Assembly: GCA_930982035.1 (NCBI GenBank) | Contig: CAKNJL010000001.1 | Coordinates: 9,796 to 73,795, forward strand | Reading direction: 5' to 3' | Origin: an uncultured Clostridium sp. | GTDB lineage: Bacteria; Bacillota; Clostridia; TANB77; CAG-508 | DNA length: 64,000 bases | Shown here: positions 3,143 to 61,534 of the stretch, piece after piece | Numbering within the stretch: position 1 is the stretch's first letter | Layout of the letters: the number at the start of each line of letters is the position of its first letter | Notes under the pieces: model-generated | What the model was told of the DNA's origin: nothing | What the model saw: the letters and a program-made list of their open reading frames with translations, nothing else | Database searches by the model: none | Translations under genes and position numbers: made by a program

Positions 3143-5972
3143 CTATAATTCTATTATTTTTAAAATAGCTTTTCTTACAATTGATAAATCTATTAAATTA
3201 ACTTCATTATCATAATTTGCATCTGCTGCTTTTTGATATTCTTCTTGTAAGGTAATTATTTTTAAATGATATTTTCTTATCCTAGATAAATCTACAAGAT
3301 TTATATTTCCATCACCATTTGAATCTCCTGTAACAATTAGTGTATATTCTTTATTTGTGTCTGTTATCAATTTATAGCCTGTTCCTATTAAGTCTGAATC
3401 TTGTATTTCTTCTCCAGAACTATTTACAACTTTATATCCTATTTCTGTAGAAATATTATTTTTAAATTCTGACAAATTTGTTTCTGGTATAATTTTACTT
3501 ATATAATTTGGATCTGTATCTATTTGATATTCAGAAGAGGTTATTGTATCATCATCTGGCTCTGGCTCTTCTACTATTTCTGTTATGTTTATTACTTTTA
3601 TTACAGAATTTCCTTTTTCATCTTCTGCATAAATTGTGTATGTTCCATTTGACTTAATACCAACTTCTGCTCTTGCTGAATTGCCCTCTGTTTTTATATT
3701 AAGTGTTGTTCCATTATTTTCAAAATATTCTATATTTTGTTCTCCTGTTGCTATTTTTATTGTTTTAATTGTAGATTGTGTATCTACTACATCTATAGTT
3801 ACTTTTACAGTTTTATCTTCTTCTATAAATTCATTAGTTGTATTCACTGTTGGAGGTGTTGTATCATCTACTTCTGGTTCATCTGTAATTGTTGTAACTT
3901 CAAATGTTTGTATTTTTGAATTACCTGCTGTATCTTTAGCAAATACTGTATATGTTCCATTTTTTGAAATATTTATTGATGTATTAACTGTTTTACTATT
4001 GTTTTCTATATCTAGTTCTTGACCATTGTCTACAAAATAGTCAATATTTTGTTCTCCTTCTGCTATTTTTACCGTATCAATAAATGTTAAAACATCTTCA
4101 ATGTTTATTGAAACAGCTACATTTTTGTTGTCTGTATTTTGTTGACTTATATTAATTTCAGGTGCTGTTTTGTCTATTATAAATTCTACAGTTGATTCAT
4201 TTCCAGCTTCGTCAATTGCTGTTAAAACATATTCTCCTTCGTCTTCTAGCATATCTCCATTTTTGTATGTTTCTATTTTTATTCCATCTTTTGTTAAAGT
4301 TATGCTTTTTAAATTTTCATCACTTATACTTGGTGTTACTGATTGATTATATACTTTGTCATTTTCAACACCACTTATTTCTGGAGGGGTTGTATCTTTA
4401 TCTGGTTCTTCCGGTTCTTCTATACTGGCTATATTAATTTCTTTTACTGCTTCATTTCCTTCTTGGTCTTTTGCATAAACTGTATATATTCCTGTTTCAG
4501 TAATGTTAAAATGAGTATTTACACTACTTCCTACACTTCCTTGCCCAATTCTTGTTCCATTTGTTGCAAAATATTCTACATTTTGACTTCCTTTAGCCCA
4601 TTTAACTTCATCTATATATGAATCTTTATCTATTACCCTTACATCAATTTGTTTTAGATTATCTGCATTTTGTGTTAAAGTAATCTCTGGCGGATCATTT
4701 GGTACTGGTTCAGGCTCTTCTACTCCTATTATTTGTTTACTATACATATATGTATATCCTTGTTCATCTTTTATATATACATTAATTGTACAATTCTCAT
4801 CAACAGTATAATTTGTAGTTACTTCTTTACCTGCATTTATAGAAATTTCTTCTCCATTATTTTCAAAATATGCTAAATCAATATCTTCTCCTATTGCTAT
4901 TTTCATTTCTACAATATTACAGATATTGTTAGTTGCTTTTATTGTTAAATTTCCAGGTGAATTCTCATCTTGAGTAATTTCTACGTTCATGACTTTTTCT
5001 TCTGATGTAATTCTTTTTTCTATCATCTTTCTATTTCCTAGTTCATCTTCTATATAAAATACATATGTATCATCTTCTGGGGCAGTATATGTTATATTTA
5101 CATCTTTTCCTTCTGTAAATTGTAGTTCTTCACCTTTTGTTTCAAAATCACTAAAATCTTCTATTTCAGAACTTTTTGCTACTTTTACTTTAACAATATT
5201 ACAAATTTTATTTGTTATTTGTAAACTTACTTCTCTAGTATTATCCGTATCATTAATTACAGCTGTAATAGGTGTTCTCTCTTTTCCTAAATATATTTGT
5301 GTAATTGTTTTATTTCCTTCACTATCTTCAACATAAATTCTATATAAAGCTTCCTCAGTTGCTCCGTGTATATTTTACAGTTACATCATTACTTTTTATA
5401 AATTCTATATCTGTTCCTTCTACACTGAAATCAATATCATCATTTATATCTTCCATTTTAGCTATTTTTATTTTTTCTATTGTGTTATTTTTACTCGTTG
5501 CGTGAATTGTTACATTCATTAGGTTTTCTTCATCTCTTGTTAGTGTAATCTGTGGCATATCATTTGGATCATTCACAGTTAATCTAGATAAAAATGCATT
5601 ACCTGCTTCATTTTTTGCATAAACTGTGTAGCTTCCATATCCATCTAACTCAAAAGATTCTTGTATAGATTGTGATGGTGTTATTTCAAATGTATAAATA
5701 TCATCATGATTTTCTTCAAAATAATTTGCATTACTTGTCTCTATATATTTGTGTACATATTTTAAGGCAGTTATATTGTATTCACTGTCTGTTGCTGTTA
5801 TATTTATTTGATTTGGATTTGTTTCATCTCTTTTTAGTTCTACATTTAATGTTATATCTCCTTCTGAAACTCCTGAAACATCAGTAGCTTGTGATACAAT
5901 TGGTATTAAAACTTGTATAAGCATTATTAGTATTACAAAAATTGATATATTCTTTTTTATATTATTTTTCAT
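3143..5972 (-). pseudogene. secreted surface protein with about 8 Ig-like repeats and a C-terminal type I dockerin, split by one frameshift
   Basis: ORF 5355..5972 carries a signal peptide (KKNISIFVILIMLIQVLIPIVSQA) and the first repeat. My translation of 5027-5375 in the frame of ORF 3143..5026 is open and continues the same repeat family (recurring G-YTVYA-D--GN blocks). The two frames overlap only around 5357-5376. The C-terminus has two calcium-loop repeats, DSNGDGNINLVDL and DANYDNEVNLIDL, which is a dockerin signature. Confidence 0.7.
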
Positions 5973-6124: not shown

Positions 6125-7138
6125 TCATTCTCCCATTATTTCTTCTTCTACCTCTTCACTATTTTTGTTGTTTTTATCATGAACCTTTAAGTAATATGGT
6201 TGTATATCTAGCAGACTATCCATATACACAATATTTCCATTTTTATCTGTTATCTTTAAATTAGGAAAAGTTCTTATCATCTTTTTATCTCCCCAGAATT
6301 TGTATATAAAATTTGATAATTTTTCATTTCCATAAATTTCATCATATTGTTCCTGAACTTGTTCTTTATTGGCAACATCTATATCATTTTTGACTATCAT
6401 TCTTACCAAGAAAAATTCTAATGCAAAAGCTGTTGATATACAATCTATCATTAGTAGTATAAATACTGTCATGACAAAGGTTTTTAAACCTTTATATGTT
6501 TTAAATTTGCTTTTTATCCAATCTATTATTTTATCTACTTTAGGATTTAATGACGCAATTAAATATATACCTAAAAATCCCCAAAAGATTGAATAATATA
6601 CACAAATTCTTCCATTTATATTAAGTGGCATTCCTGAATAATCCCACCATCTAACACCTAGTAGTAATTCTCCAACTAAACTTACAACATATTCTACTAC
6701 AGAGCCTACTATAAATCCCCCTATAAAAAGAGCGTTAAATTTTCTAGGAAATTTGTGTAAACATATAATCATTATTACAGCTCCTAATCCATATATTCCA
6801 CAAAATGGCCCATATAAAAAACTTTGTCTACTTTCCCAAACTCCTTTTGTTACAATTCCATAAAGTGTTTCAATTATATATCCTGCTACACTATAAATTA
6901 TAAAATATGCTAAAATTCTCCATAAACTTATTCCATTAATTGTCCTTACTTTATTTTTTTTGATATTTTCATCTTGCATTTTTGTTCCATCTTTTTTTGC
7001 TATATTTTCTTCATTTACTTTTTCATTAATAGTAACATTTTCACTATTTATTTTTTCTTTATTACTATTTTTTTCTACATTCATTTTTTTCGATTTTCCT
7101 ATATTATTTTTTTCTTCTGGATTTCTTTTTTCTTTCAT
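6125..7138 (-). CDS. polytopic membrane protein of the 'putative ABC-transporter type IV' family, with a K/E/N-rich N-terminal extension
   Basis: 337 aa. The conserved core (YSVAGYIIETLYG...SRQSFLYGPFCGIYGLGAV...VVEYVVSLVGELLLGVRWWDYSGMPLNINGRICVYYSIFWG) resembles Pfam ABC_trans_CmpB (PF06541, from memory). Paralogue of ORF 10797..11456. Confidence 0.7.
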   Translation of the reverse strand: MKEKRNPEEKNNIGKSKKMNVEKNSNKEKINSENVTINEKVNEENIAKKDGTKMQDENIKKNKVRTINGISLWRILAYFIIYSVAGYIIETLYGIVTKGVWESRQSFLYGPFCGIYGLGAVIMIICLHKFPRKFNALFIGGFIVGSVVEYVVSLVGELLLGVRWWDYSGMPLNINGRICVYYSIFWGFLGIYLIASLNPKVDKIIDWIKSKFKTYKGLKTFVMTVFILLMIDCISTAFALEFFLVRMIVKNDIDVANKEQVQEQYDEIYGNEKLSNFIYKFWGDKKMIRTFPNLKITDKNGNIVYMDSLLDIQPYYLKVHDKNNKNSEEVEEEIMGE

Positions 7139-9372: not shown

Positions 9373-9424
9373 GAATGTTTGTTCGGTATGTCTGCATTAT
9401 ATACGAACATTTTTTCTTTGTCAA
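9373..9424 (-). promoter_or_regulatory. consensus sigma-A promoter overlapped by two LexA-box-like sites
   Basis: Minus strand reads TTGACA (9419-9424), a 17-nt spacer, then TATAAT (9396-9401). GAAAAAATGTTCG (9404-9416) lies in the spacer and CGAACAAACATTC (9373-9385) lies between the -10 and the RBS. Each is one mismatch from GAAC-N4-GTTC. Confidence 0.6.
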
Positions 9425-9463
9425 TAGTTTTTCCAAAAAAATGTTTGTTTATAAAAACAAAAA

Positions 9464-9709
9464 GGTTACAATTCACAGCTTAAAGATACTATTAATAAGA
9501 ATGTATATATATTAATATTGAATAAATTTTGAATGTGATTGGAGTGCTTGTAGAGTTTCTTAATCTAAAAGGAATGAGGAAGCGCGATACAGCGAGAGGC
9601 TCGTTCCTTTTAGATTTAGAAACTCTAATGCACGTATTGAACCGAGAAATTTATGAAATATTAATATATATACATTCTATAAAATAATTATAAGGCTGTG
9701 AATTGTAAC
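9464..9709 (+). ncRNA. hairpin element family 1, copy 1 (candidate structured RNA or ERIC/MITE-like palindromic repeat)
   Basis: 246-bp imperfect palindrome centred on 9586-9590. Outer stem GGTTACAATTCACAGC / GCTGTGAATTGTAAC. AT-rich stem AGAATGTATATATATTAATATT with its complement. Asymmetric internal bubble. 27-bp inner helix. GC-rich apex GAGGAAGCGCGATACAGCGAGAGGCTC (9576-9602; 17/27 G+C). The wobble pairs are U:G only when read on the plus strand. Confidence 0.5.
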
Positions 9710-9720
9710 ACAAGAAGTAT

Positions 9721-9756
9721 AAATAGAAACAACCCAAAGTCTTATTCGACTTTGGG
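9721..9756 (-). terminator. rho-independent terminator after dpaB
   Basis: Stem CCCAAAGTC (9733-9741) / GACTTTGGG (9748-9756), followed on the minus strand by TTGTTTCTATTT. Confidence 0.65.
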
Positions 9757-9769
9757 CTAATTAAATTAC

Positions 9770-10348
9770 TTATAATAATATTGGACTTATTTGTTCTCCT
9801 TCTAAAGCATATTCTATTGTTTTTATAATATATTCTGCATCAAATACTATAGACCTTGGTTTTGTTATTGGATTATCTTGTTTAAAAGGTACAAAATAAT
9901 AATTTTTTCTATTTAATAATTTTCCTATATTTTCAGCATTACCACTTAATCCATTATTAGTTGAAGGTGCTATTACCAATGGATTGTTATTTCTTAAATG
10001 TGATTTTGCTGACATAGTAGCTGGAGTATCTATAATGTCACAAGCCAATTTTGCCATAGTATTTCCAGAACATGGTGCAATTACCATAATATCTGTCATT
10101 TTCTTTGGTCCAATTGGCTCTGCGTCTTGAATAGTATGAATAATTTTTTTACCTGTCATTTCTTCTATTTCATCTATAAAATCTTTTGCTTTGCCAAATT
10201 TTGTATCTAAGTTGTAACTATTGAATGACATTATTGGTATAATTTCTGCACCTTTTTTTATAAGTTCTTTCATTTTTGGTAAAACCTTGCTAAATGTACA
10301 AAATGAGCCTGTTAATATGAAACCTATTCTCTTCCCTGTTACTTCCAA
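9770..10348 (-). CDS. dpaB: dipicolinate synthase subunit B (flavoprotein)
   Basis: 192 aa, collinear with B. subtilis SpoVFB as I recall it: GKRIGFILTGSFCT, DFIDEIEEMTGK, AEPIGPKK, VIAPCSGNTMAKLA, NNPLVIAPSTNNGLS, YFVPFKQDNP. Confidence 0.85.
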   Translation of the reverse strand: MEVTGKRIGFILTGSFCTFSKVLPKMKELIKKGAEIIPIMSFNSYNLDTKFGKAKDFIDEIEEMTGKKIIHTIQDAEPIGPKKMTDIMVIAPCSGNTMAKLACDIIDTPATMSAKSHLRNNNPLVIAPSTNNGLSGNAENIGKLLNRKNYYFVPFKQDNPITKPRSIVFDAEYIIKTIEYALEGEQISPILL

Positions 10349-10510
10349 AAAAATCCCTCCTTCTTATATAATCTTTTATATAATATGATTTTATGTAAAT
10401 AATGGTTGTTATTTTTTAATAAATCTATTTTCTTATTTAATAACCAAATAATATATTTTTAACCACTATATAAAATTTGTATAAGAATATTTACCTCACA
10501 GTTTCATTAA

Positions 10511-10773
10511 ATTAAGACTGTGTAAAACTTAAGGTCATTGGGGGCAATATATAATATAAAATCATTCACAATTTTGTATAAGCTAAATTTTCAAAGAAAT
10601 TCTAAAATAACAAGATGTGCTCTTGCACTCAGACCCTCTCTTTCAGAGAGTACCGTGCATATCCCACATCTTGTTGTTTAAGAATTTCTAATTCAAATTT
10701 AGATACGCAAAATCGTTCATTCTTTTATATTATATATTGCCCCCAATGGCCTTAAGTTTTACATAGTCTTAAT
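10511..10773 (+). repeat. hairpin element family 2, copy A
   Basis: 263-bp imperfect palindrome with its apex loop at 10641-10644. GC-rich centre GTGCTCTTGCACTCAGACCCTCTCTTTCAGAGAGTACCGTGCATATCCCAC (27/51 G+C). 190 bp (10549-10738) match the reverse complement of copy B with 5 mismatches. Confidence 0.75.
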
Positions 10774-10796
10774 TTCTAAATATTTCAAAAATAGTT

Positions 10797-11456
10797 TTAG
10801 TTTGTTTGTACTACTTCAATCTTATTTTCATAAATATCGTCCATTACTTCATCAGAGTAATATTTGTCAAAAAATACATCTATATTATTTGATGCTCCAA
10901 TTTCACGATTTCTCTCGTTTTGTCTAATCGCTGCCATTGATGATACAGATATATTAAACAACATAAAAATTATGAATAGTGCTGTAATAGTTCTAAAGTA
11001 AGCATCTTTTGTAATTTTATCTATCTTATTTATTAATGGTAATATATATTTCATAAATAAAACTCCCCCTATTCCCCAATATGTACAATGCAATAGACTT
11101 GTCCTTCCATTTATATTAAACAATAAGTGAGAATAATCCCATGATATTGTTCCAAATAATATTTCTTGGAAATATGAACATAGATATTCTACTATTCCTC
11201 CCAAAATCATGGTAACAAAAAATATTTTCAAATATCCCCCTTTTATTTTTGGAACTATAAAATAATATGCTAATATTCCCAATCCATATACTTGTGCAAA
11301 AGGTCCAAATACCAATCCTTGTCTAGATACAAAATGACCATTTTGAACAAGTCCTACTACCATTTCTACTGCATATCCAATAACACTTCCTATAATAAAT
11401 ACCCAAAATATTTTTATTATTTTATCGATATATTTTTCTTGTTTCATAAACTCCAC
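10797..11456 (-). CDS. polytopic membrane protein, 'putative ABC-transporter type IV' family (short paralogue)
   Basis: 219 aa. Same conserved blocks as ORF 6125..7138 (GYAVEMVVGLV...SRQGLVFGPFAQVYGLG...GGIVEYLCSYFQEILFGTISWDYSHLLFNINGRTSLLHCTYWG). Confidence 0.7.
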   Translation of the reverse strand: MEFMKQEKYIDKIIKIFWVFIIGSVIGYAVEMVVGLVQNGHFVSRQGLVFGPFAQVYGLGILAYYFIVPKIKGGYLKIFFVTMILGGIVEYLCSYFQEILFGTISWDYSHLLFNINGRTSLLHCTYWGIGGVLFMKYILPLINKIDKITKDAYFRTITALFIIFMLFNISVSSMAAIRQNERNREIGASNNIDVFFDKYYSDEVMDDIYENKIEVVQTN

Positions 11457-11606
11457 CTTCTTACATTATTTTAATAGAAACATTCTTTTTTTCTAATCGT
11501 CTTTTCTTACATTTCTATTACATTTTTGTAATTTTAATATATCATTTAAATATTAAAAATATTTTTAGTATTTCTTAAAATTAAATTAATAATACGATGA
11601 CAATAA

Positions 11607-11880
11607 CATTAAGTTAAAGATTAGTAAAAGATGATGCTAGACGGGAAATATATAATATAAAAGAATGAACGATTTTGCGTATCTAAATTTGAATTAGAAA
11701 TTCTTAAAGAACAAAATGTGGGATATGCACGGTACTCTCTGAAAGAGAGGGTCTGAGTGCAAGAGCACACTTTGTTCTTTTAGAATTTCTTTGAAAATTT
11801 AGCTTATACAAAATTGTGAATGATTTTATATTATATGTTTCCCCTCTAATATTATCTTTTACTAATCCTTAACTTAAATG
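11607..11880 (-). repeat. hairpin element family 2, copy B (inverted relative to copy A)
   Basis: 274-bp imperfect palindrome with its apex at 11741-11744. The core is the reverse complement of copy A. The outer stem (CATTAAGTTAAAGATTAGTAAAAGATGATGCTAGAC...) differs in sequence from that of copy A but still pairs with its own partner arm. Confidence 0.75.
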
Positions 11881-11897
11881 TCATGGATATTATGGTT

Positions 11898-13061
11898 TTA
11901 TATATATGAATTTTCTATTTTAGGTACTGCATAATATTTATTATTTACATTATGTATTTTTTGCTGAACCATATTTTTCAATTCTTCATGATTAATTTTA
12001 CTTTCTGCTGGAATAACTAAATCAAATATTAAATTCATCCTATCACCACCATCTGTCATTCTAAAATCATGAATAGAAAATTCTGGATTAATTTCTTTTA
12101 CAATTTCCTCTGTTCTTTTTCTCATTTCATTAATTTCTTCATCATCTGTTACAATTGGATCCATATGAATTGTAGTTATACAATTAAACTCTTCATAAAT
12201 ATCTTGTTCCATTTGGTCTATCACATCATGAGCCTTACAAATATCACAATTCGCAGGGACCTCTGCATGAAAGGAAACAATTTTTCTTCCTGGACCATAA
12301 TCATGTACCATGATATCATGAATGCCTGATATCATTTTATACTTTTTTGCAAACTCTTCTAAATTTGCTACAAATTCTGCATCTGGTTTCATTCCTAATA
12401 ATAAATCAATAGTTTCTTTTAATGCTTTAAATCCTGTAAATAAAATAAATATTGCAACTAAAATACTAGCATATCCATCAATTGAAATCCCAAAATTTCT
12501 TGCAACAATAGCAGATAATAATACAACAAATGTAGATATTGAATCAGATATACTGTCATAAGCATTACCTTTTATTGCTGGTGAATCAATTGTTTTTGCA
12601 ATTTTGTTATAAAAAACAAATAGCCATAATTTTGTTAACACTGCAATAGTCAAAATAACTATAGTTACTATACTGATATCTGGTACTGTTGGATTTATAA
12701 TTTTATCAAAAGAATTTCTGAATAATTCTAATCCTACTAAGACAATTAATATATCAACAATAAATGCTGTGATATATTCCATTCTTCCATGTCCCCATGG
12801 ATGGTCTCTATCTATTTTTTTCTGTGAAACCTTAAATCCAATCATTGTTACAATTGATGAACCTGCATCTGTCACATTGTTTAAGGCATCTGATATAATT
12901 GAAATAGAATTTGCAAATATTCCAATAACTAGTTTTACTATTGATAATAAGATATTTACAATAATTCCAGTTATGCTTGAAAGCATTCCATATTTTGCTC
13001 TTGTTTCTGGCTTCTCTGTATCTTTATCTTTTATAAATAATTTTATTAATAAATTTGTCAT
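11898..13061 (-). CDS. cation diffusion facilitator family efflux transporter
   Basis: Six TM segments, HPWGHGRMEYI motif, and a C-terminal cytoplasmic dimerisation domain. I prefer the second ATG (MTNLL, 13061) because of its spacing to AAGGGGA. The ORF track starts at 13073. Confidence 0.85.
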   Translation of the reverse strand: MTNLLIKLFIKDKDTEKPETRAKYGMLSSITGIIVNILLSIVKLVIGIFANSISIISDALNNVTDAGSSIVTMIGFKVSQKKIDRDHPWGHGRMEYITAFIVDILIVLVGLELFRNSFDKIINPTVPDISIVTIVILTIAVLTKLWLFVFYNKIAKTIDSPAIKGNAYDSISDSISTFVVLLSAIVARNFGISIDGYASILVAIFILFTGFKALKETIDLLLGMKPDAEFVANLEEFAKKYKMISGIHDIMVHDYGPGRKIVSFHAEVPANCDICKAHDVIDQMEQDIYEEFNCITTIHMDPIVTDDEEINEMRKRTEEIVKEINPEFSIHDFRMTDGGDRMNLIFDLVIPAESKINHEELKNMVQQKIHNVNNKYYAVPKIENSYI

Positions 13062-13198
13062 AAAAAATTCCATCCCCTTCTCATTTACTTAAAGGCTTAT
13101 ATTTGTATAATTTATTTTTTATATAACTAATTATACATTAGGTTTTATATTTTTTCAAATTATATTTTTACTTATTCAATAGATTATTTAAACTGTAA

Positions 13199-14212
13199 CT
13201 ATTTATCTTCCAAATATTTTTCTAAATCCTGATTCCAATCTTGATAATCTTTATTTTCCCTATTATCTGTTAAATTAAAATTTTCTTTTAAATAATTTGC
13301 AAGATATTTGCTAACTTTAACTGCTCCATTTGTATTTAAATGCCAACCTCCATCTTGTGTATCTGTATTCCAATCAATTCCTATTTCATCTACACAATTT
13401 AATTCTAAAAATTTTATTCCATTGCTTTCTGCATAATCAGAAATTGCTTTATGCCTAGGATATGACCACGTATTTGGTGATGGCATATCTATTAGCACAA
13501 GTTCTGTTCCGTTTTCCTTACATGTTTCAACTATTTTGTCCAAATATTTTTTAGCAACTTCGTGTATCTGTGTAGTTTCTTCTGTAAATTCTAAATATTG
13601 TGTATTTCCTTTAAAAGGTACTATTTGCTTAGATATTATATATCCTTTGTATGTTGAATCATAATTATAAAAAAGTCTTTCAAAATCTTTGGTTGTTAAA
13701 GAATTCCACCTAGTATGATATCTTATAATTGGAAATAAATAGCTTAATTTATCTTGAGTTCCATAGTTTAACATTTCATCATTTATAGCTTCTATTTTTG
13801 CTTTTCCTAATTTCATATTATCCAATAATTTCCTTATATTGTCTTCTTCTAAATAGTCATCAGCAAATGCTTCATTTACATCTAACATGATGACTTTAGG
13901 ATTTTGATAAGCCAGTACCTCTTCTATTGCATAATAAGATAACCAAATTTTCTGTTCTGGTGAACCATAAGAATATGATGTAATACCTGTCTCTTGCCAT
14001 ATTTCTAAAGGTGATATTCCATTATATATATTACTACTTCCTACAAATACTACATCTAATGAATTATTTTTTTCCTCATATATTCCTCTTGTTGAAAGTG
14101 TTGCTCCTTCATTTATTACCCATTCTGGCAAAAAAACTATATTTAAAATATAGAATAACACTAAGCCTATTAATATAAATATGATAGCTGATATAAATAC
14201 CTTATGTTTCAT
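13199..14212 (-). CDS. DltD-like / SGNH-like membrane-anchored accessory protein of the acylation operon
   Basis: 337 aa. N-terminal TM. VFVGSSN (block I-like) and DGGWHLN (D-x-x-H-like). Sits directly after the MBOAT gene. Confidence 0.55.
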   Translation of the reverse strand: MKHKVFISAIIFILIGLVLFYILNIVFLPEWVINEGATLSTRGIYEEKNNSLDVVFVGSSNIYNGISPLEIWQETGITSYSYGSPEQKIWLSYYAIEEVLAYQNPKVIMLDVNEAFADDYLEEDNIRKLLDNMKLGKAKIEAINDEMLNYGTQDKLSYLFPIIRYHTRWNSLTTKDFERLFYNYDSTYKGYIISKQIVPFKGNTQYLEFTEETTQIHEVAKKYLDKIVETCKENGTELVLIDMPSPNTWSYPRHKAISDYAESNGIKFLELNCVDEIGIDWNTDTQDGGWHLNTNGAVKVSKYLANYLKENFNLTDNRENKDYQDWNQDLEKYLEDK

Positions 14213-14231
14213 ATCTATTCCTTTCTATTAT

Positions 14232-15824
14232 TTAAAATTGTCCATATATAAAACTACTTGGGTTATAGTCTTTCCCATATATTCCAAAAATGACAATACT
14301 AAATATGCCAATATAATAAATTGACCACCTTATAAATACATTTTTTTCTGATATTTCTTCTCTTATATGATGATTTTTCTCTTGCAAATAGTCAACAATT
14401 AGCATAATTGCAATAGAAAGTATTAAAATAATAAATTCTCCCATATCTAGTCCTAATGAGAATATTTTTCCATTCAGAACTTCTCCAAAGCTTGAAAAAT
14501 CAAACATAGATTTCCCTATTGCAAATGCTGTACTTATATTTGTACTTCTAAATATTAACATACCTATATTGACTAATATAAATGTTCTTAAAATTTGCCA
14601 TAATTTATATTTTTTACTATTTTTATTTATTTTCAAGAATTCTGCTAATTTTTTAAATACTGGTTCCAAAAACATCCCTATAGCCATTATTATAAAATAA
14701 TACATTCCATAAAATACATATTTCCAACTAGCACCATGCCATAAGCCATTAGCAAACCACACAAAAATCAAAGGACATAATGCAGATAATGTTTTTGCTA
14801 AATGCTTATGTTTTTTTAATTTAATATTCAGTTTTGTTGTTATATTTAAACACCATTTTGAAAATGCAACTGAATAAAATATATATTCTTTTAGCCAAGT
14901 TCCTAAAGTAATATTCCACCTTCTCCAAAATTCTTGAATGGATTTTGAGAAAAATGGTCTTTTAAAGTTCTCTTCTAGTGTAATTCCAAATATTTCTGCT
15001 ACACCTCTTACAATATTAATGCAACCTGCAAAATCTGCATATATTTGAAATGTGTAAAATAGGACTGCACAAATTGTAATAATACCTGAATATTGTGTAT
15101 AATTGTTAAACACCGCATCTACAAATATTCCTAGTCTATCTGCAATCACCATCTTTTGAAAAAATCCCCAAATTATTAAAAGACTTCCATTTTTTATATT
15201 TTTAAATTCTATTTTATGTGGTTCATACAGTTGGTTCGCTAATTGCTTATACCTTCCAATTGGTCCTTCTAAAATCTGTGGAAAAAATACCAAAAATAAT
15301 GCTACTTTTCCTAGATTTTTATCTGGCTGTATTTTTTGTCTATAGACATCAATAATATAACTTAAAGCTTGTAATGTATAATATGAAATTCCCAATGGTA
15401 GAACAAACTGCATACTTGGAATTTGAATATTTATATTAAATATATTTAATATTCCATTTATATTGCCAGAAAAGAAATTGAAATATTTCACAACACCAAG
15501 TATTCCTAAATTTATTATTAATGCAACAGCAACTACCAATTTCTTTTTACTTTTAGCTTTTGCTTTTAACTTCTTTTTTTCTTCTTTTTCTAAATTTTTA
15601 CATTCTATTTCTATCTTTTTATCTATTCTCCCTAGCAATAAGCCTAATAGATAAATTGATATTGTTGTTATACATATAAATACTATTAATTTGTTACTAT
15701 TTATCCAGTAAAATAAATAGCTTGATATTAATAATATTATCCATTTATATTTTTTAGGTGTTATAAAGTAAGCTAGTATAACTGCTACTACAAATATAAT
15801 GAATTTTAAAGAATTGATTTCCAT
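14232..15824 (-). CDS. dltB: MBOAT family O-acyltransferase (DltB/AlgI-like)
   Basis: 530 aa, polytopic. Conserved His region NGLWHGASWKY. Lies in an operon with a carrier protein and an adenylating ligase. Confidence 0.8.
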   Translation of the reverse strand: MEINSLKFIIFVVAVILAYFITPKKYKWIILLISSYLFYWINSNKLIVFICITTISIYLLGLLLGRIDKKIEIECKNLEKEEKKKLKAKAKSKKKLVVAVALIINLGILGVVKYFNFFSGNINGILNIFNINIQIPSMQFVLPLGISYYTLQALSYIIDVYRQKIQPDKNLGKVALFLVFFPQILEGPIGRYKQLANQLYEPHKIEFKNIKNGSLLIIWGFFQKMVIADRLGIFVDAVFNNYTQYSGIITICAVLFYTFQIYADFAGCINIVRGVAEIFGITLEENFKRPFFSKSIQEFWRRWNITLGTWLKEYIFYSVAFSKWCLNITTKLNIKLKKHKHLAKTLSALCPLIFVWFANGLWHGASWKYVFYGMYYFIIMAIGMFLEPVFKKLAEFLKINKNSKKYKLWQILRTFILVNIGMLIFRSTNISTAFAIGKSMFDFSSFGEVLNGKIFSLGLDMGEFIILILSIAIMLIVDYLQEKNHHIREEISEKNVFIRWSIYYIGIFSIVIFGIYGKDYNPSSFIYGQF

Positions 15825-15903
15825 TTTGAATATAATTCCTCATATAACATATTTAGGTTTTTAGATAAGGTTTTACCCATAAACCTTCACATATTTTCCC
15901 TTA

Positions 15904-16125
15904 CTAACTTAAGCTTTCTATTAATTCATATAATTTTTTAGCTGAATTAAAATTTTCTGGTATAATATCTTTTGCTGTAATTTCTACATCAAATTCTCTA
16001 TCTATGTCTGCAACAATTGAGATAATGTCAAAAGAATCTAAAACCTCCTCATCAATAAGATGTTCATGTGTGTTATAGTCCACATCTGCATTATATTTTT
16101 TTAAAATTTCAATTAATTTTTCCAT
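15904..16125 (-). CDS. dltC: D-alanyl carrier protein-like acyl carrier protein
   Basis: 73 aa. Phosphopantetheine-site context LDSFDIISIV. Overlaps the ligase gene by 13 nt. Confidence 0.75.
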   Translation of the reverse strand: MEKLIEILKKYNADVDYNTHEHLIDEEVLDSFDIISIVADIDREFDVEITAKDIIPENFNSAKKLYELIESLS

Positions 16126-17639
16126 GTATATACTCCTTCCATAAAATTATTTTTTAACAATTTTCTATCTATTTTTCCATTTGGATTATATGGGATTGTG
16201 TCTAGTTTTATCATTTCATTTGGTACCATATATGGCAACAATTTTTCTTTAAGAATTTTATGTAGTTCATTTTTTTCTAAATTTTTAGCCTGATAAAATA
16301 ACACAATTTTAGAAGAGGTTTCATCATAAACACATATTCCTGAAGTAACTCCCTCCACTAAATTAACATTTTTTTCAATTTCTCCTAGCTCAATTCTATA
16401 GCCTAAATGTTTTATTTGAAAATCTTTTCTAGACACATATATTATTTCACCATTTTCATTAATTTTTACAATATCTCCTGTCTTATATATTTTCTCTGGA
16501 TAATTTTTATTTAATGGGTTCTGAACAAATACTTTGTCTGTTTTTTCTTTATCCCTATAATATCCTGATGCTAAAAAAGATCCTCTTACACATAATTCTC
16601 CTTTTGTACTTGGTACCCCAGCACTATTTAAAATAAGTACATCACAGTTATCACAAGCCTTTCCGATTGGGATAGATTCATTTTCTTTGAATTCTCTGTC
16701 TAAAATGTAATATGTACAAATATCTGTTACTTCTGTCGGTCCATATAAATTTGCATATAGTGCTTTTACGTTTTTTCTCCACTCATTCAATTGTTTTACA
16801 GGCATAATCTCTCCTGCAAATAAAATCTTATTTAATGTTTGTGGCTTTACTACATCAAATGCTTTCAAATTGGCAACAATACATAAAGCCGAAGGTACCC
16901 AATAAATTGTATTTATTTTATTCTCATTTATATATTCTAATAATTTTACCGGAAATGAGAAATATTTTTTAGGTATAATATTTAATGTTCCACCAGCCAT
17001 AATGGTTGAAAAAATATCTAATACTGACATACTAAAATAAAATGGTGTTTGATTTCCAAATACAGTATTTTCATCAAACTTAAATATATCAACCACTGAA
17101 CTGATATATGATATAACAGATTTATGAGAAACTGCTATTCCTTTTGGTGTTCCTGTCGACCCTGATGTAAATAACACATACATTAAGTCTGTGTCTATCA
17201 TTTTTCTTCTTATTTGATTTAATAATTTCTCATCTAATAATTCTTTTGAATATAAATCATCATATAAATATATATTTTTAAATACACCTGTTTTTTCTAG
17301 TTTCTCATAATTTTTCACATCTGTTATAATCATTTCTGGTTCTAATTTATCACAAATCACTTTTGTTCTCTCTTCTGGTGATTTAGTATCTATTACTGTA
17401 TAAAAATTTCCACTATATACAGTCCCTATCATGGCAATTAAACATTCAATGCCTTTTTCCATAAATATTGCAATTGATTTATTGGTCTTATTTAATTTAT
17501 TATTAATATTAGAACCAACTATTTTAGCACTATCCATAAATTTTTTATAAGTAATACTGTCGTTTTCTTCTAAAAATATAATTTTATTTGGCATTTTTTG
17601 TACATTATTCTCTAAATATTGTAATATGTTTTTAACCAT
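16113..17639 (-). CDS. dltA: D-alanine--poly(phosphoribitol) ligase subunit 1-like adenylating enzyme
   Basis: 508 aa. AMP-binding motifs LFTSGSTGTPKG, YGPTE and YKTGD, then GRxDFQIK-like (SRKDFQIKHLGYRIELGEIE) and PNGKIDRK. Confidence 0.85.
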   Translation of the reverse strand: MVKNILQYLENNVQKMPNKIIFLEENDSITYKKFMDSAKIVGSNINNKLNKTNKSIAIFMEKGIECLIAMIGTVYSGNFYTVIDTKSPEERTKVICDKLEPEMIITDVKNYEKLEKTGVFKNIYLYDDLYSKELLDEKLLNQIRRKMIDTDLMYVLFTSGSTGTPKGIAVSHKSVISYISSVVDIFKFDENTVFGNQTPFYFSMSVLDIFSTIMAGGTLNIIPKKYFSFPVKLLEYINENKINTIYWVPSALCIVANLKAFDVVKPQTLNKILFAGEIMPVKQLNEWRKNVKALYANLYGPTEVTDICTYYILDREFKENESIPIGKACDNCDVLILNSAGVPSTKGELCVRGSFLASGYYRDKEKTDKVFVQNPLNKNYPEKIYKTGDIVKINENGEIIYVSRKDFQIKHLGYRIELGEIEKNVNLVEGVTSGICVYDETSSKIVLFYQAKNLEKNELHKILKEKLLPYMVPNEMIKLDTIPYNPNGKIDRKLLKNNFMEGVYTWKN

Positions 17640-17716
17640 TTTTTATCCCTCACTTATTTTTTTCATATATTCTACATAAGAAATGTGTCCTTTGAGTGAA
17701 CTCTAGATATTTTTTA

Positions 17717-17771
17717 TAGCATTTTTTTATAAAATGTGTTATAATTATGTATATTACTACTAAATAGGAGG
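17717..17771 (+). promoter_or_regulatory. extended -10 promoter and RBS of the only plus-strand gene
   Basis: TGtTATAAT (17737-17745) and AGGAGG (17766-17771), 9 nt before the ATG at 17781. The -35 is weak. Confidence 0.55.
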
Positions 17772-17780
17772 TATCACATA

Positions 17781-18323
17781 ATGGAAAGAGTTTTTAAGGT
17801 TGAAAACAGAGAATGTAAACAGGTTCGGGTAGTAACTGGTGAAAAAGTACGTGAACACACTGTTGTTCACGAAACTGTATTTAAAGCTAGTAAAGGCTTG
17901 CCAATTAGCCATCTGATTCGCTCAATTCATTTGGCAAAAGTGAAATTAGCAGATGGCTCCGATGATATTATTGCCTTTTACAAAAATTCTTATGAGCATA
18001 ATCATAATATTGCCATCTTAAATCAAGATATTGTCAACTTGTTGAAAGCAGGAGAAAATATCTGTTTTTGGCCAAATGGTGCCATTATCTTTTGGAGTGA
18101 ACATTCATTGTGTACAACAGTAGATATGCAACAATTGGATTTTCATCTAGAACTAGATGATTTTCTTGAAACTAATACTATTATTTTTCTTTCCGAAAGA
18201 TATGTTACAGTAAGGAATTGCTCTAATGAAAATGAAGTCAAAAAACTTAAAGTAGACTTAAATTTGGCAGATACAAATCCTGTAAAAATAACTTTCCAAA
18301 GTAAAAAGCAGGTATTCGATTAA
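17781..18323 (+). CDS. hypothetical protein on a compositionally foreign segment
   Basis: 180 aa. Only credible plus-strand gene in the window. The first 60 nt contain 22 G/C (37%), clearly above the surroundings. Uses GC-rich codons (cgc, ggc, gcc) that are rare elsewhere. Strong RBS. I recognise no family. Confidence 0.6.
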   Translation: MERVFKVENRECKQVRVVTGEKVREHTVVHETVFKASKGLPISHLIRSIHLAKVKLADGSDDIIAFYKNSYEHNHNIAILNQDIVNLLKAGENICFWPNGAIIFWSEHSLCTTVDMQQLDFHLELDDFLETNTIIFLSERYVTVRNCSNENEVKKLKVDLNLADTNPVKITFQSKKQVFD

Positions 18324-18414
18324 TTAGAATATCTGTAGACATTTTTCAAGAACTTTATGACTAAAAAAATAGTTCTTGACGCGAAAAGGATTCCTGAATA
18401 GGAACCCCAAGAAA

Positions 18415-18448
18415 CAAAAAATCCAACTCATATTGAGCTGGATTTTTT
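18415..18448. terminator. bidirectional terminator between convergent genes
   Basis: AAAAAATCCAACTC-ATATT-GAGCTGGATTTTTT, with an A-run before and a T-run after. Sits between the stop of the plus-strand gene and the stop of the DUF362 gene. Confidence 0.65.
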
Positions 18449-18534
18449 CAAATTATATGGAATTGCATTTTCCACAATTTCAATACTTATATACAAATTT
18501 AATATCTTTCCTCATTACACCTTAAACTACATTT

Positions 18535-19422
18535 TTATTTATCTAAATCAATAATCTCATATTCACGGTTTCCTATTCCAAGGTCATAAGCTGATTCTAC
18601 AGTATGAACTCCATGAAGTGATTCAATTCTTTTAATTAATTTATCTTTGCCTGAATCAGTTGAATTGTAAACTAAATCTAGGCAAGCTTGGTCTATTGCT
18701 ACTGGATCAGTTGATGCAAGTATTCCAATATCTTCCATACAAGGTGCTGAAGCATTACCATCACAATCACAATCAATAGAAATATTTTTCATAACATTTA
18801 TATAAACTGCATTTCCTTTAAAATAATTAATAACACTTTCTGCAGCATCTGCCATTGCTTCCAAAAATTTATCTTGTTCTGGTAAGTTATTAAATAATTC
18901 TTTTTGATCATCTGTAACACCTGCTGTATGGATTAAAGTTTTACCAGCTGATGATGCACAACCAATAGAAAGTTGTTTTAATGCTCCACCATATCCTCCC
19001 ATAGCATGACCTTTAAAGTGAGATAGAACAAGTAAAGAATCATATTTTGCTAAATCTTTACCTACATAATTTTTCTTTAAAATTTTACCATTTGGAACAT
19101 CTAGTTCCATATCAGGTCCTTCTGCATCTAATAAGTCAAATGGAAAATATTTTTCCCACTCATGTTCTTTAATTAATTCACGATGTTTCTCAGTAGAATT
19201 TCTAGCTCCTTCATAAGCTGTATTACATTCCACAACTGTACCATTTACATGATTGATAACATCTTTTACAAACTCTGCTCTTAAATAATTTTTGTTTTCT
19301 CTTTCTCCAGAATGCATTTTAACAGCAACTTTTCCTTCTAATTTTTTTCCTACAGCTTCATAAGCTTTAATGATATTTTCTGGAGTTATGTCTTTAATAA
19401 AATATACTTTTGATTTTTCCAT
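18535..19422 (-). CDS. DUF362 domain protein
   Basis: 295 aa. The N-terminal pattern VYF...VAVKMHSGERENKNYLRAEFVKDVINHV...VECNTAY matches my recollection of DUF362 proteins. Confidence 0.6.
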   Translation of the reverse strand: MEKSKVYFIKDITPENIIKAYEAVGKKLEGKVAVKMHSGERENKNYLRAEFVKDVINHVNGTVVECNTAYEGARNSTEKHRELIKEHEWEKYFPFDLLDAEGPDMELDVPNGKILKKNYVGKDLAKYDSLLVLSHFKGHAMGGYGGALKQLSIGCASSAGKTLIHTAGVTDDQKELFNNLPEQDKFLEAMADAAESVINYFKGNAVYINVMKNISIDCDCDGNASAPCMEDIGILASTDPVAIDQACLDLVYNSTDSGKDKLIKRIESLHGVHTVESAYDLGIGNREYEIIDLDK

Positions 19423-19535
19423 AATTTTTCCTCCTTTAATTATTATAAAATATTTTTACTAATTACATTCCAAATCTATTATATATTTTAATATTGTGAT
19501 TAAATTTCGAATGTGATTTGAGTTTTTATAGAGTC

Positions 19536-20282
19536 TTATTTTTCTAATTTATTATATTCTTCATCACTTACTGGTTCACACCATTCATTTGATGTATCTT
19601 CTCCAGGTACTTCTACCGCAAGATGGCTAAACCAAGAATTTGCTGAGGCTCCGTGCCAATGTTTTACATTTGCTGGTATTACAACTACATCTCCTGGTTT
19701 CAAACTTTGAGCTGGTTTTCCTTCTTCTTGATACCATCCTTCTCCTTCAACACATACAAGAATTTGTCCTCCCCCTTTTGTAGCATGATGTATATGCCAA
19801 TTATTTCTACATCCTGGTTCAAATGTAACATTAGCAATAGATACAACAGAAGAACCTGGTTTAGTTAATGGTTTTAAATATGAGTTACCAACAAAATATT
19901 GTGCAAATGCTGTATTAGGTTCTCCCATTCCAAACATTCCTCCATGCTCTTCTTTAGTATTATCGTCTGCATACACTTCTTTTGCCATATTAAATACTGC
20001 CCAAGCATTTGGCCATCCAGCATAAAATGCTGCGTGTGTAATAATTTCTGCCATTTCTGTTTTTGTTATTCCATTGTTTTTTGCATTTATTAAATGATAT
20101 TTTAATGAACTATCTACCATTCCTTTACCCATAAATATACATATTGTAACTAAAGACCTGTCCCTTAAAGACAATTTGTCCTCTCTTGACCATACCTCTC
20201 CAAATAATACATCATCATTTAATTCTGCAAATTTAGGTGCAAATTCTCCTAAACTATCTCTACCTGCTGTTTGTTTTTTCAT
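19536..20282 (-). CDS. carboxymuconolactone decarboxylase-family domain fused to a cupin domain
   Basis: N-terminal half is CMD-like (LSLRDRSLVTICIFMGKG...EIITHAAFYAGWPNAW). C-terminal half is a cupin (FEPGCRNNWHIHH...GDVVVIPANVKHWHGA). Confidence 0.8.
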   Translation of the reverse strand: MKKQTAGRDSLGEFAPKFAELNDDVLFGEVWSREDKLSLRDRSLVTICIFMGKGMVDSSLKYHLINAKNNGITKTEMAEIITHAAFYAGWPNAWAVFNMAKEVYADDNTKEEHGGMFGMGEPNTAFAQYFVGNSYLKPLTKPGSSVVSIANVTFEPGCRNNWHIHHATKGGGQILVCVEGEGWYQEEGKPAQSLKPGDVVVIPANVKHWHGASANSWFSHLAVEVPGEDTSNEWCEPVSDEEYNKLEK

Positions 20283-20299
20283 ATTCTTTTTCCTCCTTA

Positions 20300-20330
20300 T
20301 AATATATTTAGGATTTAAAGTAATCCCAAA
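20300..20330 (-). promoter_or_regulatory. MerR-type promoter with a 19-nt spacer and an internal dyad
   Basis: Minus strand reads TTGGGA (20325-20330), a 19-nt spacer, then TATTAT (20300-20305). The spacer contains the dyad GGATTactttAAATCC. It lies directly upstream of the CMD/cupin gene and downstream of the MerR gene. Confidence 0.5.
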
Positions 20331-20452
20331 ACTTTTTATCTTTATGTTATAATAATTAGCATTACAAATCCAATATTATTTATTCATTTTTTTAATTCGT
20401 TTTTAAGATTATTTATTTTTATTATTCTGTATATAATAATAAAGTAATCTAT

Positions 20453-20824
20453 TTATATTAGATTTTTATCTAATATATTTTTGTCATACAATTCTATTTT
20501 CATTGTTAATTTATCATAAGCTTCTTGCATTGCATCTAGTTTTTCTTTTAATATATTTCTTTGTTCTACCAAAATTTCTCTTCTTTCTTTAACTGTTTTA
20601 TCACCTTCATCAAATAAATCTAAATACTTTTTCAAAAAACTTATTTCTAGACCTGCTGACCTCATACATTTCACAAATTGGATTCTCTTTATATCATCTT
20701 CATCATAATTTCTAATCCCATTTTTACCTTTTTTGATTGGACCAATTAGCCCTTCTCTTTCATAATATCTTAATGTATCTGTAGTTAGCCCAAACTTTTG
20801 TGCCACTTCTGATATTTGCATACT
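20453..20824 (-). CDS. MerR family transcriptional regulator
   Basis: HTH ISEVAQKFGLTTDTLRYYEREGLI followed by a coiled-coil C-terminus. I place the start at MQISEV (20824) because AAAGGAGG precedes it. The ORF track extends to 20866. Confidence 0.88.
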   Translation of the reverse strand, partial: SMQISEVAQKFGLTTDTLRYYEREGLIGPIKKGKNGIRNYDEDDIKRIQFVKCMRSAGLEISFLKKYLDLFDEGDKTVKERREILVEQRNILKEKLDAMQEAYDKLTMKIELYDKNILDKNLI

Positions 20825-20946
20825 TATCGCCTCCTTTGATTTTTTATTACATATATTATATATCACTTAGAGTTAACTTCAAGTCAATACCTTTTTTATA
20901 TTTTATTTAAAAACAATATAATTTTTCTTACAATTCATAGCTGATT

Positions 20947-21180
20947 CCTGAAAAATTCTAAAACTAATAATATATATGAAAGCCAAAAGTTATATTATAA
21001 TATTTTTTATTTATTTGTGTGACGTGGAATATATGTACGCCTTCTTAGCTTTAAATAAATGAGGAAGCGCGATACAGCGAGAGGCTCGTTTGTTTAAAGT
21101 TTAGAAGGCGTCATTTATGGAGCTAGCCAAATAAATAAAAAATATTATAATATAACTTTTGGCCCAGTAAATTTTCAGGT
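20947..21180 (+). ncRNA. hairpin element family 1, copy 2
   Basis: Contains the same 32-nt core, ATGAGGAAGCGCGATACAGCGAGAGGCTCGTT (about 21058-21089), as copy 1. The 27-bp inner helix has a different sequence but the same pairing. There is a perfect 36-bp AT-rich stem (20982-21017 / 21128-21163) and an outer pairing CCTGAAAAATT / AATTTTCAGG. Confidence 0.5.
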
Positions 21181-21226
21181 TATGAATAATGTATACATAC
21201 ATTCTATACTATTATTACTTAATTAG

Positions 21227-21278
21227 AAAAACCAGTAATATATGATGTTTTGTGAAATATTATATATTACTGGTTTTT
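21227..21278. terminator. terminator after the PBP gene (bidirectional)
   Basis: Stem AAAAACCAGTAATATAT / ATATATTACTGGTTTTT with T-runs on both strands. Confidence 0.65.
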
Positions 21279-21298
21279 ATTTAGTTTTTATTTAGTTT

Positions 21299-39210: not shown

Positions 39211-40186
39211 CTAATATTCATCAAAAATTTTTAGTTCTTCACTTGGTACAATTTGAGTGGTTTTCTTTAGTTCTTTTTCATTCACTATTAAGCTTTCATC
39301 TATATCGAAATTAAGCCAATCCGAATTCCATAATTTTATATTAGATTTATATAACTTTTTACAAATAATAGAATTATAATTTCTTTTTGGCTTATATGTA
39401 ATTGTTATTCTTTGTAACCAAATGCTTAAATAATCCGTATTAGGAATCTTTGAAAATTTATTTTCTATCAATGAAATGATACTCTCTCTATCTTTTTTCT
39501 TTTCAAATGATAATAACTTGCTTAAAATAGCAACACAAACATAATATGATTTCGTATTATTATACATTATGTCTATAATAATACTTATTATGGCTCTATT
39601 ATCAAAAGGTTTATTTTCCTTATTCTCTATTTCATTCTTATATATATTGTTTAATAAAGTAATTACTCTTCCGCTATTAGGAAATTGTAAAGAAAAATTT
39701 CTGATTTGCAATAGATTTTTCTGCAAACTAATATCATCATCATATTTAAAATCAATAGATTCCAATTTATCTCGTTTTATAGAATTGGATATTACATCAT
39801 CAGATATCAATGTTTTTTGCGTATTTAATCTCATATTTAAAGTTGCTAACTCTTCTAAAATTATTTTTAATATTTCGTTTAATTCATCTCTATTATTTGA
39901 AAATACACGATAATCATCTCTATATCTCAATATTTTATAATTATTTATATTCTCTTCTTCTAATCTATTAGAAATCAAAGTATCTCCATATCCTAAAACA
40001 ATTTCTGCGATAAAATCCATAAGAGTAGTCCCTTTCTGTTAAATTTTTTCCTTGTATCTTTTTATCAACTTTTTTTAATAAATCTGTAAAATCAAAATAT
40101 TTTGGTAGCTCTAACCCAAAATAGCTAGTATTCTTCATAAAATACTTTTTTGCTCTTTCTGGTGTCATATCTAAAATCTTTTTCAA
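39211..40186 (-). pseudogene. Abi/UG-class reverse transcriptase remnant with an internal deletion
   Basis: The N-terminal piece (ERAKKYFMKNTSYFGLELPKYFDFTDLLKK) lies in one frame. The C-terminal piece starts mid motif B (TLMDFIAEIVLGYGD), then RT motif C (ILRYRDDYRVF) and motif D (LNMRLNTQKTLI). About 190 aa, including palm motif A, are absent between the two pieces, and the pieces are out of frame. Confidence 0.65.
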
Positions 40187-61349: not shown

Positions 61350-61445
61350 TTTGTCTTACCTCCATATATCACCATATTTATATCACAGATTTACATTTTC
61401 CTCAACAAAATCATTAAAATTTGCACTGAATACATTGAATTTTTG

Positions 61446-61480
61446 GTTCAAAAATAAAGCACCTATTACAAAGGTACTTT
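61446..61480 (-). terminator. rho-independent terminator after abiEii
   Basis: Minus strand reads AAAGTACCT-ttgtaat-AGGTGCTTT followed by ATTTTTG. Confidence 0.6.
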
Positions 61481-61534
61481 ACTTAGGATTCTCTTTAACT
61501 TTTAAATTTTATTTTTCAAAATATCGTTAGCCAT

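Follow-up and report, generated by a model that had tools for sequence, protein, structure and literature searches.

A low-copy palindromic repeat with covarying arms and strain-variable copies in an uncultured gut Clostridium

A 64-kb stretch of DNA from an uncultured Clostridium sp. (the window; positions are 1-based on its forward strand) contains two long hairpins, A and B, which are copies of a previously undescribed palindromic repeat. This repeat, family 2, behaves like small mobile DNA and not like a conserved RNA gene. Its arms covary, its presence differs between strains, it has been truncated in a close relative, and sibling hairpin families in the same genomes are nested. We consider it probable that family 2 is a low-copy, MITE/REPIN-like element. 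It would differ between strains by gain, replacement, nesting and truncation, would favour the centres of palindromes just 3' of genes, and would owe its arm symmetry to inheritance and renewal at the DNA level. The host is a spore-forming gut Clostridium of about 26% G+C, in which family 2 resides in intergenic 3' flanks.

Hairpins A and B and their further copies

The repeat search placed the arms of hairpin A at 10509-10619 and 10665-10775 (111 nt, 81% complementary) and those of hairpin B at 11609-11720 and 11766-11877 (112 nt, 78% complementary). The segments 10541-10742 of A and 11643-11844 of B match in inverted orientation (202 nt, 96% identity; Table 1). Copy A folds with a minimum free energy (MFE) of -130.5 kcal/mol on the plus strand (z = -20.9 versus dinucleotide shuffles) and of -132.8 kcal/mol on the minus strand (z = -20.2). 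The description of A and B in the first-pass annotation as long rod-like hairpins therefore stands, at about 270 nt each, as does that of a G+C-rich centre of 51 nt with nested stems. The centre of A, at 10617-10667, has 52.9% G+C in a window of 25.9% G+C overall, and it folds into TGCAC...GTGCA enclosing CTCTCT-TTC-AGAGAG. Its central 35 nt, TGCACTCAGACCCTCTCTT-N-CAGAGAGTACCGTGCA, are the same in all four copies found except for the middle loop base (T or A); the bases flanking these 35 nt differ in the copy at locus L003. The likeness of the overall architecture to that of the neighbouring family 1 hairpins was also confirmed. The lengths of the family-2 copies span 213-323 nt.

Table 1. Positions of the hairpins and neighbouring genes (window coordinates unless a locus is named).
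Feature	Position	Strand	Remarks
Copy A, full hairpin (outer stem and core)	10509..10775	+	Inverted repeat, fold energies
Copy A, conserved core	10541..10742	+	Unit common to copy B, L003/L004 and L005
G+C-rich apex module	10617..10667	+	Central 35 nt near-invariant over four copies
Copy B, full hairpin, inverted relative to A	11603..11884	-	Inverted repeat, folds
Copy B, conserved core	11643..11844	-	8 differences from A
CDF cation-efflux gene	13073-11898	-	Directly before copy B in gene sense
CmpB-like membrane protein gene (219 aa, PF06541)	10797..11456	-	Pfam E = 4e-36
Flavoprotein (DpaB-like) gene	10348-9770	-	Follows copy A in gene sense
Family 1 hairpin	9465-9709		After the flavoprotein gene in gene sense
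Allelic series of palindromes	L022 1602-1628; L024 1489-1520; L018 1449-1626; window 20982-21163		
Family 3 hairpins	L014 6233-6445; L015 6172-6404 (also L016, L017)		

Nearly all genes in the window lie on the minus strand. Copy B starts 18 nt downstream of the CDF stop codon, and copy A lies 22 nt 3' of the CmpB-like stop, upstream of the flavoprotein gene. The 219-aa CmpB-like gene is thus enclosed by the inverted copies B and A; its product has 34% identity to a paralogue encoded at 6125-7138. Beyond the hairpin at 9465-9709, the order in gene sense is LysM, M3 peptidase and a second CmpB-like gene. Copies A, B and L005 start 0-22 nt past a stop codon and L003 about 215 nt downstream of one. 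The strand corresponding to A(+) is the sense strand in three of the four copies, with A and B in opposed orientations relative to their co-directional flanking genes. The terminator scan returned sites at 9759-9730 and 9591-9605 only, and none at A or B. Neither hairpin has on its 3' side the T run of an intrinsic terminator, and no canonical terminator was found after the CDF or the CmpB-like gene. No transposase or RAYT domain was found in the 51 ORFs scanned among the 57 of at least 120 aa in the window, the other six being mostly short and overlapping larger genes. Likewise, the Pfam results and gene tables gave no Y1 transposase in the window or in the short loci of relatives.

Further copies were sought with an apex-pattern scan of one genome per species, which gave three real loci (two of them distinct, L003 = L004 and L005) and one chance match. 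L003 and L004 are one locus in two metagenome-assembled genomes (MAGs). The core of L003 (459-661) is 86.7% identical to that of A, and the core of L005 (1187-1385) is 94.5% identical. L003 and L005 belong to one MAG, labelled 'uncultured Clostridia'. A contig from the same sample, L022, encodes a CDF protein 98% identical to that of the window, which indicates that this MAG is essentially of the same species. The census thus comprises four intact loci (A, B, L003 = L004 and L005) and a remnant in L012/L013. It upholds the view of A and B as members of a repeat family, but the genome-collection scan and the metagenome scan added only two further distinct loci. Over 360 kb of the window and related loci, an nhmmer profile of the core matched A, B, L003/L004 and L005 only and no diverged copy. 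Solo outer stems lacking the core were looked for, and none was found. A metagenome scan and two viral scans gave no further copies, only unrelated phage-like sequence with 24 nt of the apex. This near-match (CAGACCCTCTCTGTCAGAGAGTAC; L007 786-813 and L008 8028-8052), in phage-like sequence of about 39% G+C, is probably a coincidence. Searches of plasmid and phage collections with blastn gave no match to the element. Ten contigs of the window strain assembled from short reads (L001, L002 and L050-L057) break off within A or B, in keeping with a repeat. Family 2 is rare and low-copy.

The first-pass annotation had named a match to a known repeat or ncRNA family as a finding that would speak against its reading. 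Rfam 15 gave no hit that reached the gathering score, either for the window or for seven related loci, and at E <= 10 on 9400-12000 just generic miRNA-precursor hairpin models appeared, far below threshold. A 6S-like RNA, a ribozyme, a retron msd, a plasmid single-strand origin and an attC site were rejected on the grounds that Rfam gave no signal, that no reverse transcriptase, integrase or replicon is adjacent, and that the context is chromosomal and housekeeping. Coding potential was rejected after six-frame translation, which gave no ORF common to the copies: a stop interrupts the longest frame in L005, and in L003 that frame is shifted. When the translated element was compared with the protein database to catch spurious ORF calls, nothing matched.

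Arm covariation and the two strands

Within 10549-10738, A and B differ at exactly five positions (10608, 10614, 10615, 10670 and 10676), in agreement with the first-pass annotation. Four of these form two base pairs, 10608/10676 and 10614/10670. Five sites placed at random would include at least two partner pairs with a probability of 1.7e-4, and chance therefore does not account for the pattern. Over the whole 202-nt core there are eight differences, made up of three compensated pairs and two single changes, with the third compensated pair (10545/10739) outside the 190-bp block. Whether pairing is preserved every time on the A(+)/B(-) strand, as the first-pass annotation stated, depends on the limits chosen for the block. 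The next difference, T to C at 10548, produces a C.A mismatch on B(-), whereas the complementary strand has a wobble there.

In the alignment of the four distinct copies (A, B, L003 and L005), 92.9% of the cells pair. Both-sided changes are found in 22 of 108 pairs, compared with 9.6 ± 2.2 in shuffles and at most 5 with slid partners, and double changes (25 cells) far exceed one-sided wobble (G:U) changes. The arms of the family-2 copies clearly co-evolve. The covariation carries no tie to one RNA strand. When each left arm was aligned to the complement of its own right arm, the wobble counts on the two strands were 6/6 in A, 4/8 in B, 4/5 in L003 and 3/3 in L005, with no strand bias in wobble versus A.C across the four copies. 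The opposite strand has the lower MFE in 4/4 copies, by 2-11 kcal/mol; the advantage is 9-11 kcal/mol in B, L003 and L005, and in A the two strands are about equal. Among the core columns, 14 of 51 unpaired (27%) and 18 of 145 paired (12%) vary (p = 0.016). L005 contains 81 consecutive perfect Watson-Crick pairs without a G:U, and also two adjacent uncompensated mismatches in the helix to which the first-pass annotation had drawn attention.

One block change is informative about mechanism. In L003 the right-arm block CGTTCATTC is exchanged for CAGAAATAA, which complements the copy's own left-arm block save for one mismatch. In A, B and L005, the CGTTCATTC block matches the left-arm block in the same reading direction, which amounts to a short inversion, and it is this inversion that produces 'bubble 1'. 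The exchange in L003 is positive evidence for templated DNA events. Template switching is known to yield both arm homogenisation and spacer inversion (PMC8604942, PMC8794818), and switching during replication can create and maintain hairpins in a manner that mimics compensatory substitution (PMC8794818, PMC8604942). It should be mentioned that covariation is also expected from selection on a structure. The A-specific change from G-C to U:G at 10608/10676 is not a product expected of templated correction, and is easier to explain by selection for wobble pairing in a single strand.

Strain variation, outer layers and sibling families

The spacers orthologous to the L005 site were located by a search with the SpoIID protein of L005. 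In L005, 301 nt of family 2 (1136-1436) occupy the spacer between spoIID and an M23 peptidase gene. In 13 same-species loci (L026-L033 and L035-L039) with flanks about 96% identical, an unrelated 96-nt hairpin (L026 3523-3618) is found there instead. Both alleles split an 18-bp perfect palindrome, with halves ATGATTTTG and CAAAATCAT, at its exact centre; this motif is absent from the ends of any other element examined. The junctions between host palindrome and element at the L005 site contain no homology to guide conversion. In relatives at 84% amino acid identity, a nested family-1 hairpin of about 440 nt is present at the spoIID site. This multi-layer hairpin (L040 about 3520-3950, also in L041-L045; spacer MFE -232 kcal/mol) consists of several nested layers, among them two inverted GTGATTGGAG bubble modules and the family-1 apex; no other 'Russian doll' in the material was as extreme.

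Searching with the CDF protein gave a graded series of relatives, the contigs of which were compared with the window. In L012 (CDF 96% amino acid identity) the order is PBP - CDF - 295-nt spacer - flavoprotein - LysM - M3 - CmpB, and the 219-aa CmpB-like gene and most of A and B are missing. The spacer joins the left outer stem of B to the apex and left arm of A, in A minus orientation, at a 5-nt microhomology, AAGAT (L012 6204-6208). A second small deletion lies further on, and the folding of the remnant is lost (z = -0.9). L012 is a deletion derivative of a window-like arrangement, which implies that the family-2 element is dispensable there. In most other relatives a LiaF-like gene follows CDF, and their homology to the window ends 2 nt beyond the CDF stop codon. 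Several other differences were seen in this region. A short palindrome, GCCAAAAGTTATATTATAC/TATAACTTTTGGC, followed by TTTCATATAT, stands in place of the flavoprotein-gene terminator in L012 (7051-). Large strain-specific indels occur between PBP and CDF (window 13081-21282 versus L012 4735-4982 and L009 2936-4982), where the presence of AMP-binding, MBOAT, 337-aa, DUF362 and CMD/cupin genes is strain-dependent and where several of the breakpoints have a hairpin element at or close to them.

The sibling families display the same kind of variation in other combinations. The family-1 apex, a 49-nt G+C-rich module (ATGAGGAAGCGCGATACAGCGAGAGGCTCGT), sits in two unrelated outer stems in the window, F1a at 9465-9709 and F1b at 20982-21163, with 90% identity between the two. 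F1a, which L012 lacks, has the ends GTTACAATTCACAGC together with an 8-bp duplication (ACAAAAAG/ACAAGAAG). F1b, with the ends GCCAAAAGTTATATTA, is absent in L009 and is itself nested in a decayed F1a-type element, and at L003 5661-5920 an F1a-type outer stem carries a different apex. In the PBP-MerR spacer, palindromes of 27, 32 and 182 nt form an allelic series within identical flanks (Table 1), that is, palindromes have been inserted or deleted centrally between strains. Directly after the CDF stop, the relatives L014 and L015-L017 (about 90% amino acid identity) have a family 3 hairpin. The ends of this hairpin are GTAACAGTTCAG, and its 8-bp direct target duplications (AGAACTTC, AAAGAGTC) are clean. 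Its G+C-rich cargo differs between L014 and L015, and L009 has no family 3 hairpin after CDF. The 3' end of the CDF gene is a hotspot for hairpin elements. The 8-bp target duplications of the sibling families indicate that transposition of such hairpins occurs in these genomes.

The outer stems of family 2 are homologous at about 55-63% identity: A-B and B-L005 are about 63% identical (shuffle p = 0.001-0.006) and A-L005 55% (23/42, p = 0.014), and L003 has at most a decayed outer stem. Each diverged stem still pairs with its own partner arm, as had been noted from A and B. The outermost ends are the least conserved part of family 2, the opposite of a classical MITE. The identity of the core (94-96%) is about that of orthologous DNA between these strains. 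The difference between about 95% in the core and about 63% in the outer stems suggests that a young 202-nt core lies inside older palindromic layers. A single unit that spread once cannot give both identities unless its outer part hyper-evolves. An alternative source of the outer divergence is a set of masters whose outer part needs only to pair, like the spacer of a REPIN (PMC3116915). In both cases we attribute the 'compensated' outer stems to the layers of palindromic DNA and not to selection on an RNA.

Origin of the element and related systems

In the reading that we favour, new copies would insert at the exact centre of an existing palindrome, which could be a short hairpin or an earlier element. 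Such insertion would build 'Russian-doll' hairpins and hide any target duplication. No direct repeats are recognisable at A, B or L003, and CTAG/CTAG is seen at the core boundary of L005; central insertion would disguise a duplication as part of the stem. The repeats in the family-2 flanks are inverted and not direct, for example AAGA/TCTT in L003. The complementarity of the arms would be inherited from the palindromic origin and may be refreshed by replication template switching (quasi-palindrome correction), possibly aided by selection for the ability to fold into a hairpin as a single-stranded DNA intermediate. In this reading, arm symmetry is not kept up by selection acting on a single RNA strand. 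Copies would decay via central or microhomology deletions. A hairpin co-transcribed with its upstream gene would probably act incidentally as a 3' stem in termination or stabilisation. An autonomous partner of family 2 was not found among the 51 window ORFs scanned or in the plasmid and phage collections. A possible, though rather doubtful, account is that the elements home to palindrome centres without visible target duplication via an undescribed mechanism. This might involve a hairpin-apex-specific recombinase acting on folded single-stranded DNA; otherwise, hairpin DNA might be captured where palindromes are broken at their tips. The hosts could then be short terminator-like stems or earlier elements, in layers up to about 440 nt, and the conserved asymmetric core of family 2 may serve as the recognition module.

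The first-pass annotation implied a structured RNA maintained by compensation on one strand. Such an RNA could be an independent small RNA or a 3'-UTR stabiliser or terminator, and compensatory evolution at the RNA level would preserve its long stem. We consider this unlikely. The strong arm covariation with 92.9% pairing over four copies, the two compensated pairs among five differences (P = 1.7e-4) and the near-invariant G+C-rich apex are what such an RNA would show. The change from G-C to U:G in A keeps wobble pairing only in RNA. Three of the four copies start 0-22 nt past a stop, the A(+)-like strand is sense in three of four, and the CDF and CmpB-like genes are followed by no canonical terminator. 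However, the reading of one-strand compensation found no support: wobble and A.C are balanced, no copy folds better on the proposed strand than on its complement, and A and B are opposed relative to co-directional genes. Moreover, 10548 breaks pairing on the proposed strand, the 81 perfect pairs of L005 include no G:U, the unpaired columns are more variable than the paired ones, and Rfam gave no match. The element is also absent, replaced or truncated in close strains that retain the neighbouring genes. Of the observations that the first-pass annotation itself had named as contrary to its reading, two apply in part: uncompensated stem changes are present, as the two adjacent mismatches in the L005 helix, and so is behaviour like that of mobile DNA, as gain, replacement and truncation between strains.

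A DNA-level origin does not by itself require mobility. Non-mobile palindromes might have arisen and grown in place at the 3' ends of genes by template switching during replication and hairpin-break repair, with the core spread between loci only by ectopic gene conversion among similar AT-rich stems. This too seems improbable to us, even though it would account for the templated block changes and perfect arms, the central indel series at one site, and the failure to find a target duplication, conserved termini or a transposase. Template switching can create hairpins de novo (PMC8794818), and recombination could find a substrate in the stems beside the core, which consist of low-complexity AT runs. 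Against in-place growth, the junctions at L005 have no homology to guide conversion, the same 202-nt core with fixed internal asymmetries is found at four unlinked loci, and clean target duplications of 8 bp accompany sibling families in these genomes. The arrangement in the window, in which inverted 202-nt repeats bracket a single gene, could also be seen as a composite transposon-like unit with A and B as the ends that move the CmpB-like gene, the more so as all of this is missing in L012 and most relatives have the LiaF-like gene after CDF. This is very unlikely. L012 keeps parts of both copies joined at microhomology, which is a deletion and not an empty site, L003 and L005 are solo copies, and there are no flanking direct repeats. 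The CmpB-like gene is found in one and the same context in all 16 contigs that contain it, with at most one base difference from the window. These contigs are of the window strain and thus carry no information on polymorphism within A and B.

The probable mobile element was compared with known systems. REPINs (REP doublets mobilised by RAYT) are, like family 2, non-coding intergenic hairpins predicted to fold in single-stranded DNA or mRNA; they likewise have one conserved part and one in which only length and pairing count, and are persistent and vertically inherited. Compensatory changes across the REPIN hairpin have been reported to be common (PMC3116915). The two differ in that REPINs are about 70-110 nt long whereas family 2 is 213-323 nt and of very low copy number, that REPINs have conserved REPs at both ends and a variable apex spacer whereas family 2 is conserved in the centre and variable in its outer part, and that REPINs have a RAYT whereas none was seen in the 64 kb examined. 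The two inverted end REPs of 20-40 nt that define a REPIN are not present in family 2.

Bacterial MITEs include Correia/CREE, ERIC/IRU, RUP and Bacillus bcr1. Like family 2, which is non-coding and below the limit of about 600 bp, they are small, intergenic, inverted-repeat over their whole length and strain-polymorphic, and they form a long hairpin when transcribed. Family 2 shares with them the dispersed copies and strain insertion polymorphism (four loci, a remnant and the spoIID site). It does not have their terminal inverted repeats conserved among copies, its ends being about 63% identical and its centre 94-96%. Families 1a and 3 do resemble MITEs in having 8-bp target duplications and conserved terminal repeats; in family 2 no target duplication was recognisable. 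We know of no cognate IS for family 2. Because the conserved ends of MITEs and of REPINs were both looked for and are lacking, family 2 is assigned to neither class and is placed as a new relative of such elements.

IS1397/ISKpn1 and IS110/IS1111-type elements insert into the loops of palindromic units. Their insertion at palindrome centres resembles that at the spoIID site and gives rise to nested mosaics, but they are protein-coding IS, whereas the family-2 insert and its host are both non-coding hairpins. Integron attC sites are imperfect palindromes that are recombined as folded single strands and have strand-defining bulges. As in family 2, structure is kept more than sequence; however, attC sites are 57-141 nt long, have conserved bases at the stem base and flank cassettes next to an integrase, none of which was seen for family 2. 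Template-switch mutagenesis produces, as here, multi-nucleotide changes that complement the other arm and short inversions in inverted repeats, and it gives apparent compensatory substitutions without RNA selection (PMC8794818, PMC8604942, PMC7202029). It is a process and not an element, and alone it cannot explain one core at four unlinked loci.

These observations call for caution in genome scans. 'Compensatory' changes in a long hairpin are no evidence for an RNA if the element is a DNA palindrome of which both strands fold equally; template switching and layered insertion give the same picture. The hairpins mark strain-variable points, often near indels and rearrangements, in an abundant uncultured gut lineage, and they break short-read assemblies, which is relevant to MAG quality and strain typing. 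Homing to the centre of a palindrome, if true, would add a new route by which non-coding DNA spreads and would explain the persistence of palindromes of more than 300 bp in a bacterium.

A few other features of the window are recorded here. A 627-aa protein encoded at 3143-5026 (-) has a C-terminal dockerin type I domain, suggestive of a cellulosome-like complex in this organism. At 39211-40020 (-) lies the C-terminal half only of an AbiP2-type defence reverse transcriptase (PADLOC E = 3e-86); the match covers profile positions 219-485 of 489, which marks a truncated gene. A link between this reverse transcriptase and the hairpins was rejected, as it is a defence-gene remnant 28 kb away. It adjoins a gene for a protein with Schlafen/AlbA_2, HATPase_c_4 and HTH domains (40212-41693, -). 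Genes for a Fic/DOC protein, an AAA_21 ATPase and an AbiEii nucleotidyltransferase toxin at 54095-55231 and 59995-62392 form what looks like a small defence/toxin-antitoxin neighbourhood.
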